41,790 nucleotides of DNA from Octopus sinensis. Lineage: Eukaryota. Under the pieces are notes generated by a model. That model saw only the letters and a program-made list of their open reading frames with translations, was not told the DNA's origin and did not search any database. The position numbers and the translations under genes are program-made. Where the stretch lies: NCBI RefSeq assembly GCF_006345805.1, contig NW_021835881.1:1-41790 (forward strand), in the 5' to 3' direction. Shown here in pieces: positions 13,965 through 34,500 of the stretch. Within the stretch, counting starts at the first letter, position 1; each line of letters opens with the position of its first letter.

Positions 13965-14010
<46 letters not shown>

Positions 14011-14226
14011 AGTTAATCCAAACAAGAAAACACAGAAAAAAAACACAGCAACGCGAGGACGTGGAACAATTAAAGTATTATTTGACGCTCAGGAAAGAAG
14101 GGAAGGAGGGTTTAACGTTTCGAGCGTAGCTCTTCGTCGGAAACAAAGGAGAAGGAAAGATCCCGAGAAGGGAAGACAGAGGAAAAAAATTTTTTTGATG
14201 GTGGTGCTCAAGAGATCACATGTTGA
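14011..14226 (-). mobile_element. PLE-type terminal fragment inserted in (TA)n
   Basis: (TA)n on both sides; carries a minimal HHR; organisation similar to 29292-29490. Confidence 0.6.
14110..14144 (-). ncRNA. Minimal type I hammerhead ribozyme (U4C variant)
   Basis: GUUU-CCGACGA-A-GAGC(uac)GCUC-GAA-ACGU-U-AAAC: stems I and II paired, palindromic ACGU stem III. Confidence 0.7.
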
Positions 14227-14505
14227 ATATATATATATATATATATAAGTTTAACAATTAAGGATAATCTCTTAATAAGGGATTTTAACAAGAAATTATC
14301 GGGTAGCTAGCGTGAAAACCTCATAAAAGAAAAGAATTCGAAAATAATTTTTTTCTTTTGAACAAATTAATTATATCTATATTGTATAGAGGGCATTATT
14401 ACACATAAATGCCTCACACTAGGAGGGACAAAGTCATTACTACCAAAATTATACTAATCATACCCAAATGCAGTTTTTCAAAGCAAGACATTTAAAAATG
14501 AATTT

Positions 14506-14563
14506 AGTTCTGTATCACCGTGATTTCACATTCAACTTACGTCTAATTATCATCAGCAGAACT
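14506..14563 (-). ncRNA. Type I hammerhead ribozyme, array A copy 1
   Basis: AGUUCUG-CUGAUGA-stem II (one extra mismatch versus copies 2 and 3)-GAA-AUCAC(G)GUGAU-A-CAGAACU. Confidence 0.75.
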
Positions 14564-14983
14564 GATTCTGAACACATCATAAATAAACTACCAACCTTAC
14601 GTAGCGAAGACGAACAGACACTGCTCACTCCGGCCAAGCACATGGAACGTTTATAAATCATATATCCGGTAAATGGCGGGCTTTTTACGAACTGCATGTC
14701 GGTAATGAAAAGTATTTCGGAATAAGTTTAACAATTAAGGATAATCTCTTAATAAGGGATTTTAACAAGAAATTATCGGGTAGCTAGCGTGAAAACCTCA
14801 TAAAAGAAAAGAATTCGAAAATAATTTTTTTCTTTTGAACAATTAATTATATCTATATTGTATAGAGGGCATTATTACACATAAATGCCTCACACTAGGA
14901 GGAGGGACAAAGTCATTACTACCAAAATTATACTAATCATACCCAAATGCAGTTTTTCAAAGCAAGACATTTAAAATGAATTT

Positions 14984-15041
14984 AGTTCTGTATCACCGTG
15001 ATTTCACATTCAACTTACGTCTAATGATCATCAGCAGAACT
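14984..15041 (-). ncRNA. Type I hammerhead ribozyme, array A copy 2
   Basis: AGUUCUG-CUGAUGA-U-CAUU-A-GAC(GUAA)GUU-G-AAUG-U-GAA-AUCAC(G)GUGAU-A-CAGAACU. 7-bp stem I, AUA cleavage triplet. Confidence 0.85.
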
Positions 15042-15453
15042 GATTCTGAACACATCATAATAAACTACCAACCTTACGTAGCGAAGACGAACAGACAACT
15101 GCTCACTCCGGCCAAGCACATGGAACGTTTATAAATCATATATCCGGTAAATGGCGGGCTTTTTACGAACTGCATGTCGGTAATGAAAAGTATTTCGGAA
15201 TAAGTTTAACAATTAAGGATAATCTCTTAATAAGGGATTTTAACAAGAATTATCGCTAGCGTGAAAACCTCATAAAAGAAAAGAATTCGAAAATAATTTT
15301 TTTCTTTTGAACAATTAATTATATCTATATTGTATAGAGGGCATTATTACACATAAATGCCTCACACTAGGAGGGACAAAGTCATTACTACCAAAATTAT
15401 ACTAATCATACCCAAATGCAGTTTTTCAAAGCAAGACATTTAAAAATGAATTT

Positions 15454-15511
15454 AGTTCTGTATCACCGTGATTTCACATTCAACTTACGTCTAATGATCA
15501 TCAGCAGAACT
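15454..15511 (-). ncRNA. Type I hammerhead ribozyme, array A copy 3
   Basis: Same sequence as copy 2. Confidence 0.85.
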
Positions 15512-15589
15512 GATTCTGAACACATCATAAATAAACTACCAACCTTACGTAGCGAAGACGAACAGACAACTGCTCACTCCGGCCGTGTG

Positions 15590-17027: not shown

Positions 17028-17181
17028 ATGCCGGAGTTAGCACATAAATGTGGAACAAGGTGGGGAAAAAAAGAATACTCAAATACAAGAGGTAGAGTAA
17101 TATGCTTTATTATCAGAAATATCACAAAAAGTGTCACTCTGAGTAACAGTTTTTGTGATAATTCTGTTGCTTTTAATAAAG

Positions 17182-17220: not shown

Positions 17221-17274
17221 GTATGTATGTATATATGCTTGTATGTATGAATGTATGAATGTATATATATATAT

Positions 17275-18230
17275 GGAAAAATAAGTCAAGATAGAAAATG
17301 CTAAAGTTATTTTATAAAAAACATTTCAGTACCGGTTTCAGTAATTGAGACTTTTTCAATTGTAAGTATGGAAAATAATTAGAATTGGAAAAATTTAAAG
17401 AAAAGTTTTTTAAAAAAATATATGCTTAGTGTTCAAATACAAGTGGCATTTTCCTTGTTTCTGCCTATCTCTGTCTCTCTTGTTTATTCATGTGGATTCG
17501 AGGTCGTTGTGATTTATTGGTAGGGAAGAAGAAGAAGAAGAAGAAGAAGAAGAAGAAGAAGAAGAAGAAGAAGGAATGTAGGTAGTGTGAAAGTAGTAAG
17601 GTGTTAAATGTTCAAAATGACTTAAAATTGGCACGTTATGGATTATAGCAGTGATTGGAACTGTTTTTTCATGAATTCTTGGGAATCTCTTGAGCGTATC
17701 ATTATTAATATTTGCGTGTGTATTTGTGTTATTCTAAGGCCGTGGTGGATATGTCGTTTGTCGTAGACGCGTTCAAAAGGGGTCTGTATTTTGTAATAAA
17801 GAGAGTCTCTTTAATAATTCGTTGACTCCAGGTTGTATCGTTCCTGAATTGGTAGAGGGGAAAACTTCTAAAGCTTGGATTTTTGTTATTGGTGCAAATG
17901 TCTATGCTTGATTAGTTTTGATCCGAGTTCAAGGAGTCTTCGTTCACAAGTATAGGTGTCCGAAACTATGGAACAGATTCTTTTCGCTAGCTTACCAGGT
18001 ATATTAACGGTGTGGCATAAATTGAATAATAGGTATTGTTTTGAATCTGTGGGTTTATAGAAGACGTCTGTTTCGATGTGGTTATTGGCTATTTTAATTA
18101 GGATGTCAAGAAAAGGGAGTTGTTTATTGCTGTGCTCCATGGTGAATTGTATGTTGCTATTGATATTGTTGAGCATTATTTTGAAATCAAGTAGTTTGTC
18201 CATGCTATCTTTCTAAAGTATAAAGCAATA
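17275..18230 (-). mobile_element. Penelope-like retroelement fragment (RT C-terminus fused by deletion to the end of GIY-YIG, plus 3'UTR)
   Basis: ORF 17886-18203 NSNIQFTMEHSNKQLPFLDILI...TDVFYKPTDSKQYL.F..CH (PLE RT/thumb), then FPLYQF...QRIIKERLFITKYRPLLN. 3'UTR has (GAA)n and an HHR-like motif and ends in (TA)n. Confidence 0.88.
17327..17362 (-). ncRNA. Atypical hammerhead-like motif (UUGAAAA core) in PLE 3' end
   Basis: CAA-UUGAAAA-AGU(cucaauu)ACU-GAA-ACCGGU-A-CUG. Confidence 0.4.
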
Positions 18231-19293: not shown

Positions 19294-19531
19294 GTATACT
19301 TCATTATTAAAGCTGGAAAATACATCACAAAAGTATCACAAAAAACTGCTACTCAGAGTTTCACGTTCCCGTTGGTCGGGCAGATCGTAACTGCCCGACG
19401 AACAGAAACGTGAAACTCTGAGTAGCAGTTTTTGTGATATCTTTGTGATGTTTTGCAACTTAATAATAAAGCATATTACTCTGAGTGCTATTCTTTGCCG
19501 TACCTTGTTTCACTTTTATGTGCTTACTCTG

Positions 19532-19535
<4 letters not shown>
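19294..19535. mobile_element. Inverted pair of PLE-type terminal repeats, each with a hammerhead
   Basis: Arms ~19294-19383 and ~19391-19476 with a 7-nt spacer; flanked by TA/TATG microsatellites. Confidence 0.75.
19391..19428 (+). ncRNA. Minimal type I hammerhead-like motif (mirror copy at 19346-19383, minus strand)
   Basis: Plus copy: CUGC-CCGACGA-AC(agaaac)GU-GAA-ACUC(U)GAGU-A-GCAG. Minus copy: CUGC-CCGACCA-ACG(ggaa)CGU-GAA-ACUC(U)GAGU-A-GCAG. Confidence 0.65.
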
Positions 19536-19602: not shown

Positions 19603-19657
<55 letters not shown>

Positions 19658-19820
19658 AAGTCAAATTGCGATAAAATAAAAATAATTATTATCGCTGGTA
19701 TTTCTAGCACAAGCCATATATTTTTCATATATCAGTACATTAAGGCGAAATATGTGCTAGGAACACAGAAGCTAGATAAATTTAGTGAAATGAAGATAAA
19801 AACATTTACTAACTCGGTTC

Positions 19821-19894
19821 CTCTTAGACTGCAGTTTCGTTCTTTTCATCAATAAAGATAAATTATTTGCTCAGGGAGAATTCATCGGTAAGAG
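19821..19894 (-). ncRNA. Type I hammerhead ribozyme, array B copy 1
   Basis: CUCUUA-CCGAUGA-long stem II (UUCU/AGAA...)-GAA-ACUGCAGU-C-UAAGAG; GUC triplet. Confidence 0.8.
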
Positions 19895-20217
19895 CCCTGT
19901 TGTTCTGAGATCCTAACTCACTAGAAGCATGTGCTTCTAATGATTTACTCTCTCTAACTAATCAGATCACTGCGCAGACTCCGAACGTCCCGACAAAACT
20001 AGGGATTTCTGGTATATCGTCTAGCGCTCAAAATTTATCGAGAAATATGTAAACAAGTCAAATTGCGATAAAATAAAAATAATTATTATCGCTGGTATTT
20101 CTAGCACAAGCCATATATTTTTCATATATCAGTACATTAAGGCGAAATATGTGCTAGGAACACAGAAGCTAGATAAATTTAGTGAAATGAAGATAAAAAC
20201 ATTTACTAACTCGGTTC

Positions 20218-20291
20218 CTCTTAGACTGCAGTTTCGTTCTTTTCAGCAATAAAGATAAATTATTTGCTCGGGGAGAATTCATCGGTAAGAG
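20218..20291 (-). ncRNA. Type I hammerhead ribozyme, array B copy 2
   Basis: As copy 1, with better distal stem II pairing (AGCA/UGCU, AUAA/UUAU). Confidence 0.82.
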
Positions 20292-20407
20292 CCCTGTTGT
20301 TCTGAGATCCTAACTCACTAGAAGCATGTGCTTCTAATGATTTACTCTCTCTAACTAATCAGATCACTGCGCAGACTCCGAACGTCCCGACAAAACTAGG
20401 GATTTCT

Positions 20408-21155
20408 ATTCTATAATTATGAACATAATTATAATCAGGAGTCAGCTAATTGCTTCACCAGGCACCGAATTTAGAAATGGTAGTTAAAATGACTTTTCTG
20501 CTACTATAAAGATCTCCCAGACAATAACAAACTTATTTACGTACAAAAAGAAAAAAAATTACGAATCCACACGACTTAGATTAGCTACATACGCGTTTCG
20601 AATTTGAAGTAAGGTAATATTTACTTACTTATTTCACCTCTTCAGTGCAGTATTTCAAGATATAAAGTTGTGAGTGTTAGAATTAAATATGTACGTGATC
20701 AAGCGTCATCGCATAACTGACATCCAACCAACACTTTCAAAAATATACAGCCGAACGTGAACACGTTTTCATCCTTAATACCCACGTGTGTGTTACGAGT
20801 AATCCTGCAGAAACTGCGATTTCTGATCAAGGAGTAAAATATATTTCAATAATAATAAAAGGCTTAATTAATAATTAATAATTTTACCGAGTAGTTCGGT
20901 ACCTTTTTTAGGTAAAATTATATTTTATAAATATAATTATAACCAGGGGTTAGCTAATTGCTTCACCGTGCACCGAATATAGAAATAGGAGTTAAAATGC
21001 CTTTTCTGCTACTGTAAAGATCTCCCAGACAATAACACTTATTTACGTAGGCAAAAAAAAAAAGCGAATCCACACGACTCAGATTAGCTACATACACGTT
21101 TCGAATTTGAAGTAAAGTAATATTTACAAACATATTTCACCCCTTCAGTGAAGCA
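20408..21155 (-). repeat. Retrozyme-like tandem array C: ~505-bp unit x ~1.5 (copies visibly diverged)
   Basis: ATAATTATAA.CAGG.GT.AGCTAATTGCTTCACC at 20425 and 20933; HHR motif repeated 503 bp apart. Confidence 0.85.
20585..20650 (-). ncRNA. Type I hammerhead ribozyme, array C copy 1 (decayed copy at 21088-21153)
   Basis: CUGCA-CUGAAGA-GG..UGAA.UAAG...CUUA.UUCA..UC-GAA-ACGCGU-A-UGUAG; GUA triplet. Copy 2 has CUGAAGG and ACGUGU. Confidence 0.8.
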
Positions 21156-33611: not shown

Positions 33612-34500
33612 ACAAAGAAGCCTTCACCATCATCACCCAGAATTTACCAATACTTCATAAGGGCCCCAAATTAAAGGAAATTCTAAAAAATACACCAAAT
33701 CATTAAAAGCTACAAACAACCTAAATCACTTAAAAAGATTCTCACAAAGGCAAAATTGTTTTCTGAAATTACGGATGCAAAAGTAAAAAAATGTGGTAGA
33801 TCGAACTGTGCAACATGTCCAAACCTGCTAGAAGGATCAGAATTCCTCTTTAAAGAGGGACAGAAATTCAAGATCAAATCTAACTTTACTTATGCCTCTG
33901 AAAACATAATTTATGTCATAAAATGCTCGGGCTACCACCAAGACTACGTGGGATCCACGGGACTATCACTCAGACGTAGATGCACACTGCATCGACAATA
34001 GATTGCATTCCCAGAATACAGAATGATACCTTTTAGTGAGCACATTGAGAAATGCGCAAAGCAACTACTACCACAATTTTTAATCTTTCCATTTTACCAA
34101 TGTGCTATCTGATCATCAACACAAATCAGACTAAACAAGGAAACATTCTTCATTGAAAAGTACAAGCCCAGACTTAACCATTCCAACATACTGATACAGA
34201 GAAATTCACACCAAGGGAAAGGCAAAAAATTTTAAGCGATTATCTCCCTTATACCGGAAGAAATCACTCATTACCTCCCCTTATTTAGAACTCTTTTAAA
34301 CATAAACATAACGATAACTCTGTTCAACATAAACTTAACGTCGTAAGAAATTTGAAAAGCTAAACGCGAAACCGGTCTTTCTTCTAAATTATGTCATTGT
34401 AAGAGAAAAGATTTTTTAATATTCTTCAGATATTGACTCAAATATATATATTTTTAACCTTTAAGCCTTCTGTAGTTTTTTCACTTTTTACTATTTTCTG
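33612..34500 (+). mobile_element. Penelope-like element 3' part (Neptune-like Cys linker plus GIY-YIG endonuclease, disabled)
   Basis: IIKSYKQPKSLKKILTKAK...CGRSNCATC...SENIIYVIKCSGYHQDYVGSTGLSLRRRCTLHRQ*...FSEHIEKC...FPFYQ...KETFFIEKYKPRLN; (TA)n on both sides. Confidence 0.9.
34345..34383 (+). ncRNA. Atypical hammerhead-like motif (UUGAAAA core) in PLE 3' end
   Basis: AAGAAA-U-UUGAAAA-GC(uaaac)GC-GAA-ACCGGU-C-UUUCUU; 6-bp stem I, GUC triplet. Confidence 0.5.

Follow-up and report, generated by a model that had tools for sequence, protein, structure and literature searches.

Array A is a tandem array in the 41,790-nucleotide stretch of Octopus sinensis DNA analysed here (the window; contig NW_021835881.1), and its features are collected in Table 1. 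Tandem-repeat analysis of the window gave a period of 478 bp, 2.8 copies and 97% matches, in agreement with the repeat of about 477 bp first annotated at this place. The array sits in a TA run at the inner end of element P, a remnant of a Penelope-like element (PLE) described below, and the second arm that is present at many other loci of the family is absent here. Its RNA would correspond to the minus strand, the plus strand being the presumed cDNA. No ORF of more than 71 codons was found when a trimer of the unit was scanned, and an endless reading frame, as in viroid-like coding circles, was rejected, since the longest stop-free stretch has 71 codons. Further hairpins had been proposed in the unit (GGCATT/AATGCC), and this one is indeed present beside each copy of start site 126; it is kept in the sister family A2 and is a candidate protein-recognition element.

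Table 1. Features of array A in the window
Feature	Position	Strand	Remark
Single-arm retrozyme array A	14245..15584	-	2.8 units of about 478 bp
(TA)n target microsatellite, primed end	14227..14246	.	same junction at 243 exact genome-wide places
Start site 1, "long" end with tail, used by the window insertion	14245..14250	-	insertion junctions
125-nt "tail", start site 1 to start site 126	14246..14371	-	two hairpins inside
Start site 126, TA-like stretch	14848..14859	-	internal in window; repeated at 14372 and 15320
Type I hammerhead copy 1	14500..14568	-	predicted cut 14513/14512; C10.2>A in stem II
Type I hammerhead copy 2	14978..15046	-	predicted cut 14991/14990
Type I hammerhead copy 3	15448..15516	-	predicted cut 15461/15460
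GGCAUU/AAUGCC hairpin	14868..14889	-	immediately 5' (in RNA) of site 126; further copies at 14392 and 15340
5'-truncated inner end	15580..15584	-	unit position 391; joins TG-rich, SINE-like repeat (family D19)

Hammerhead motifs of the array A unit

The minus strand carries three hammerhead motifs in the window, one per unit of array A, and a type I descriptor gave three matches in the window, all of them in these units, and none in 5000 shuffled units. The elements listed in the initial annotation were recovered each time, namely stem I (AGUUCUG/CAGAACU) with a C/AA bulge and a GAAU/AUUC extension, and the CUGAUGA...GAAA core, with CUGAUGA at plus-strand positions 14550-56, 15028-34 and 15498-504. 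The cuts placed after AUA, which delimit monomers of 478 and 470 nt, are also correct as predicted cuts. Conservation of the core elsewhere in the genome, on which that annotation had made its reading depend, was found, both core halves being intact in 181 of 196 genomic copies from 80 loci. Nucleotide N7, the one free position of the core (C in 132, U in 44 and G in 17 of the copies with an intact CUGANGA), varies more than any other column of the unit in the initial sample of 40 loci.

The stems depart in part from what had been described. The GUAA loop said to cap stem II is present, but it caps a distal extension, some 9 bp away from the core, and is not constant (GUAA in 129, GUAAA in 40 and GCAA in 26 of the 195 copies, out of 196, with a readable loop), and stem II itself opens with a U·U pair. 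This pair is a constant of family A (U10.1 in all 193 copies that have CUGANGA intact), which does not carry the G10.1-C11.1 pair that serves as a criterion of the type I hammerhead; in A2 the first stem II pair is G-C. Since a natural variant of this kind has been published (PMC7229834), the U·U pair lowers the expected activity and not the membership. In hammerhead copy 1, the change at 14548 breaks one more stem II pair. Similarly, the AUCAC-G-GUGAU sequence proposed as stem III occurs three times, but a loop of 1 nt is sterically impossible, and stem III of the monomer consists of 4 bp plus a CGG loop, which is CAGG in A2. The seventh pair of stem I is missing in one subfamily. When a three-stem fold with stem I open was applied to families A and A2, 95% of the cells were paired. 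Between the two families both sides have changed in two stem I and two stem II pairs while the A2 core is kept, which implies selection for cleavage. These four compensatory pairs go back to a single split of the family and do not count as independent, so that the covariation is suggestive and not statistical support. The same number of pairs was attained by 216 of 500 shuffles. An Rfam search disclosed no hammerhead in array A even at E<=10, nor in two A2 loci, probably on account of the long stem II insert.

Folding of the isolated motif was no better than that of shuffled sequences (z -0.5 to +0.4), and relative to the predicted minimum the hammerhead fold was less stable by 3.5-4.0 kcal/mol in the window copies, by 1.2 with C at N7 and by 2.1 in A2. 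The whole minus-strand monomer, however, was more stable than its shuffles when linear (z -5.7), and also in the circular mode that had been suggested as a check (-118.4 versus -89.2, z -6.1), whereas the opposite strand remained at shuffle level (-86.3). Covariation over the whole unit, as judged from a single A2 monomer, was modest, with 5 compensatory, 15 one-sided, 26 broken and 108 invariant pairs. Fast cleavage through a contact between a GNRA loop II and the stem I loop, as first envisaged, was not borne out, the tetraloop being too distal and too variable, and the internal loop located 4 bp from the core is more likely to be the contact partner. Conserved loop-loop pairs exist among hammerheads (PMC6155905). 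In view of the distal, variable GUAA loop and of the subfamily without a seventh stem I pair, the architecture is likely to be a stem I of 6 bp and a stem II of 4 bp, each followed by an internal loop. This would be the geometry of the S. mansoni ribozyme, in which stem I and stem II each lead into an internal loop.

A weak monomer is predicted from the U·U pair and from the parallel with axolotl HHR_Amex2, in which a U·U pair goes with 22% cleavage in 1 h as a monomer and better cleavage as a dimer (PMC7229834). HHR_Amex2 and array A have in common the U·U at the base of helix II and a short helix III, and they differ in that helix III of array A is a palindrome of 4 bp and its helix II has a distal hairpin beyond the internal loop. 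By these sequence criteria, the three minus-strand type I hammerhead motifs of array A are genuine, and its hammerhead is, as such, an ordinary one.

Distribution and insertion anatomy of the family

In the 2.72-Gb assembly of the source organism, a unit search gave 196 matches from the 40 loci scored out of 999 candidates, the full-length copies being 94-98% identical with one at 90%. The cut-site motif has 1,181 exact occurrences genome-wide, and 14 of them follow one another at C1:38.17 Mb. Exact target junctions were found on many contigs for start site 1 (n=243) and for start site 126 (n=266), where the latter forms the outer end of an opposite arm, and none were found with the controls. 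Altogether, the family comprises several hundred recent insertions dispersed on many contigs. The sister family A2, with 53 exact motif matches, is 81% identical to A. No RNA data set was listed as containing the unit. Contigs assembled from four runs that can only be guessed to be RNA span all 30 unit bins and connect unit end with unit start, a result that tandem DNA explains equally; since assembled contigs cannot show strand, ends or circles, they served solely as a lead to A2. The identity of the copies, the number of cut-site motifs, the conservation of the core and the covariation support the initial annotation of a type I hammerhead in a recently inserted retrozyme. With dispersed copies, tandem units that each bear a type I hammerhead, no ORF and no LTR, array A is by sequence criteria a young non-LTR retrozyme.

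The most informative feature of the family, which is absent from the initial annotation, is the combination of two (TA)n-primed start sites with inverted two-arm insertions. The copies lie in (TA)n and their arms almost always begin at unit position 1 or 126, 125 nt apart. Among 40 loci (a set that leans to site 1 because the query started there), 28 were inverted two-arm arrays whose outer ends both lay at a start site, and every one of these had one end of each kind; at two of the 40-locus set, L004 and L035, BLAST overruns into TA were read as site 126. The remainder were one atypical two-arm locus and 11 single-arm loci, that of the window among them. In the junctions listed from contig C1 to 115 Mb of C5, facing pairs were of mixed type in 43 of 43 cases (P about 1e-13 if the ends were independent). 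The input to this pairing was 85 site-1 and 100 site-126 junctions, 15 site-1 rows past the reach of the other list having been dropped, and 99 junctions were left unpaired. Forty of these 99 were fetched and proved to be 24 mixed pairs, 12 single arms, two that ran beyond the stretch and two ambiguous cases, with no same-type pair among them. As for the 31 A2-type loci, 15 of the 16 pairs with canonical ends were mixed, five loci had atypical ends and ten were single. The exception, L148, is a 126/126 pair. Other irregular loci were L015, where the second arm begins at unit position 315 without TA, and L136, L139 and L146, which also have atypical ends. At L008 an A arm is joined to a 66-nt PLE 3' fragment; the same PLE sequence adjoins, and the locus was not counted as an A/PLE chimera.

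A probable trace of priming is present in the site-126 arms. At unit position 131 the target-type A replaces C in 33 of 39 terminal copies but in only 1 of 161 internal ones, as expected if the 3' end of (TA)n annealed on the RNA. These terminal target bases, together with arms of non-integer length that have fixed outer and variable inner ends and with the strict end rule of the inversions, are left unexplained if each locus is a PLE terminal-repeat remnant or monomer expanded locally as a satellite by unequal crossover, a model discussed in bioRxiv 10.64898/2026.07.22.740005. The greater likeness of units within arrays than between them speaks for that model, but no parent PLE with the A sequence was present among the PLE loci sampled and we consider it very unlikely. 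LINE-type RT fragments are common in the fetched loci and LINE twin priming produces inversions, but the inverted part then comes from inside the same RNA at variable positions, while A has two internal start sites and no poly(A) or simple-repeat tail of its own. An assembly artefact from palindromic long reads should leave mirrored flanks and identical ends; in the loci observed, both the flanks and the end types differ. Retroposition by a LINE or such an artefact can, taken together, be given hardly any probability.

The inner ends vary and do not cluster, with 2 of 125 at the ribozyme cut (P=0.19), and a linear cleaved monomer was consequently rejected as the template. Arms reach 10.2 units (L039), with the cut site crossed repeatedly. 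In 28 of 51 two-arm loci, variants are common to both arms (80 calls, against three discordant calls which, like singletons within arrays, may be assembly errors), and at L034, L048 and L049 variants present at 1-2% of the loci occur in nearly every unit of both arms. Substitutions per site were 0.0064 within arms, 0.0078 between arms and 0.0110 between loci. The common variants indicate that both arms derive from one template haplotype. One monomer read repeatedly is the simplest source, and a homogeneous linear multimer, or conversion after insertion, could also produce them. In shorter insertions the two arms tend to end together, within 3 nt in 7 of 23 as compared with 2 of 28 in the long set, and within 16 nt in 13 of 23, which fits a fold-back as well as a pair of enzymes that both ran off a single broken RNA.

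Under the fold-back explanation, one end alone would be target-primed and the second arm would be a copy of the first cDNA folded back on itself, its end being set by the annealing of a TA-like stretch to the second target end. The variants common to both arms, the coincident arm ends and the TA-like character of site 126 agree with this. Nevertheless, the site-126 arm is often far longer than its partner (8.2 versus 0.5 units at L034 and about 7.7 versus 2 at L126), and single arms begin at either start site. Moreover, an arm that had started at site 126 and folded back would be expected to use another site 126 rather than site 1, where TA homology amounts to only about 3 nt, and there were no same-type pairs among the 43; we therefore regard a fold-back origin as improbable.

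Penelope-like elements and the route of insertion

Young PLE families with long open frames, at least three in number, are present in the same genome; their frames measure 784, about 780 and up to 1,009 codons (L114:3129-5480 and the C10:29235440 region). The young, autonomous family PLE-1 has intact 784-codon RT+GIY-YIG frames, with an RVT_1 match and a GIY-YIG match below the cutoff, and its ends abut (TA)n, some bearing a tail of about 30 nt and others none. Both outward termini of its inverted pairs could be seen in 6 of 42 loci, and all six had one tailed and one short end. A second PLE family also displays both end types, and in PLE-2 a single end type was found, in 7 of 10 stretches, the other three not being readable. 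Published EN+ PLEs likewise leave inverted 5'-truncated copies with a 30-40-bp tail, often at one end only (PMC8557442). In vitro, this tail equals the distance between two internal RT start sites, and both target strands are cut and extended by a protein predicted to be a dimer (PMC11167929).

The family of array A has the traits of a non-autonomous PLE passenger: it targets (TA)n, starts at fixed 3' positions, is truncated at the 5' side and forms inverted arms with a tail at one end. Terminal-repeat homology to an autonomous PLE was not found in the PLE families sampled. The A unit showed no similarity to three PLE 3' regions and element P, or to 104 PLE-enriched loci, an incomplete sampling that leaves out the Naiads. 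Neither was a PLE with a 125-nt tail or an A-like terminus present in PLE-1, PLE-2, a Pfam GIY-YIG sweep (30 loci cut out of 150 matches) or the clusters of TA-abutting ends. An AAGTT start common to A and element P is absent from A2 and was dropped as chance.

We believe that array A is probably a dispersed non-coding retrozyme inserted by a PLE reverse transcriptase/endonuclease that copied an RNA which was itself probably circular. The minus-strand transcript would cleave itself after AUA, weakly or with the help of a dimer or a protein, and ligation would close the product into a circle of some 480 nt. Both strands of a (TA)n run would be cut by a PLE protein, for which others predict a dimer; one of the target 3' ends would then anneal to the RNA at site 126, and its counterpart to the same molecule at site 1. 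Both reverse transcriptases might then run round the circle for up to ten or more turns, and the two cDNA ends would be connected head-to-head, in many cases at short palindromes or through small inserts; in the window copy, the site-1 arm alone would have survived or been made. We advance more tentatively, and with slightly less than even confidence, the specific version of this account in which an asymmetric PLE dimer uses two start sites, defined by structure, on one circle, one for each strand of the (TA)n double-strand cut, and performs two rolling-circle reverse transcriptions. If true, the insertions would be a genomic record of the movement of an animal retrozyme and of the origin of PLE tails and inversions, and tail length (125 nt) would be set by the passenger RNA and not by the enzyme.

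Several observations speak against a PLE copying a circle. PLE tails, both local and published, measure 30-40 nt and that of array A 125 nt; L148 and the loci with atypical ends break the end rule; the hammerhead has a U·U pair, a fold that is not the minimum and no Rfam match; and the coincident arm ends of the shorter insertions are explained equally well by fold-back of a single cDNA. The template might also be an uncleaved linear multimer transcribed from an existing array, with PLE enzymes at work but no role for circles in mobility. PLEs are transcribed as tandem multimers, and in vitro the Anolis PLE inserts without need for ribozyme cleavage, ribozyme mutants included, with the same start sites on both strands (PMC11167929). 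A weak-looking U·U hammerhead would leave multimers uncut, and symmetric arm ends fit run-off at one linear 5' end. On the other hand, family-rare variants in nearly every unit of both arms would require a one-monomer bottleneck at or shortly before insertion, and the conserved core and covarying stems imply selection for cleavage, so that we hold this alternative to be unlikely.

Relation to known elements and other features of the window

The metazoan non-LTR retrozymes of coral, mussel and axolotl (Cervera & de la Peña 2020, PMC7229834) resemble array A in being tandem, non-coding, a few hundred bp long and low in GC, with one type I hammerhead per unit, a highly self-paired predicted monomer and dispersed arrays. 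The unit of array A is 478 nt long and theirs range from 150 to 450. Array A is set apart by its inverted two-arm arrays, (TA)n targeting and two fixed starts, the excerpts of that paper containing no mention of "inverted" or "microsatellite"; circles and cleavage have been shown for the published retrozymes and are predicted for array A. The resemblance to the EN+ PLEs Neptune, Poseidon and Naiad (PMC8557442, PMC11167929) lies in the (TA)n preference, 5' truncation, the tail at one end, the inverted copy at the 5' side and the hammerhead near the 3' end. Array A differs from these in having no ORF, a canonical and not a minimal hammerhead, arms that are multimers of a short unit, and a tail of 125 versus 30-40 nt. 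The Xenopus retrozymes reported as PLE derivatives (bioRxiv 10.64898/2026.07.22.740005) also tie animal retrozymes to PLEs; there the link is co-occurrence and terminal-repeat homology, whereas in array A it is the mechanics of the insertion junctions, with no PLE homology found.

PLEs have been termed "a strong candidate" for moving animal retrozymes (PMC7229834), the "precise mechanisms remain to be elucidated" (bioRxiv 10.64898/2026.07.22.740005), and the formation of the tandem and inverted structures of PLEs and of their tails has been stated as an open question (PMC8557442). A full-text literature search in which few subscription journals were covered brought up no report of inverted arms, a pair of fixed starts or (TA)n priming in retrozymes. 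Array A belongs to a new retrozyme family, and its junctions provide mechanistic evidence for mobilisation by PLEs. The family offers hundreds of young junctions, a near-exceptionless end rule, a 480-nt substrate and intact PLE frames in the same genome. Both the enzyme of retrozymes, along with the question whether their circles serve as templates, and the tails and inversions of PLEs could be studied with the existing in vitro assay, with array B as a neighbouring control family.

Array B (window 19648-20407) is an unrelated retrozyme of 397 bp with a CCGAUGA (U4>C) hammerhead that scored 29.3 bits, below the gathering score, against Rfam Hammerhead_1. In each of 19 loci it has a single fixed start at (TA)n and lacks an inverted arm, and its last bases resemble the short end of PLE-1. 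Hammerhead cores with U4>C recur in the source genome. The segment next to array B (20408-21150) contains a diverged pair of repeat copies of roughly 500 bp, and in both of them the minus strand shows a very short CUGAAG...GAAA motif. Element P (14010-14230) is what remains of a PLE 3' end, about 220 nt, and includes a minimal hammerhead-like motif; its copies are 97-99% identical (1,429 candidates) and it is similar to the end of the PLE-2 family. A small (TA)n-abutting element is found in inverted arrangement at 19320-19535 and 17030-17180, with a hammerhead-like motif of CCGACGA core at about 19392-19428 on the plus strand. Decayed PLE 3' fragments of the RT thumb/GIY-YIG region, 50-72% identical to PLE-1 and ending in (TA)n, occupy 17270-18230 (minus strand) and 33690-34500 (plus strand), and a broken LINE-type ORF with an RVT_1 match is located at 300-2140 on the minus strand.
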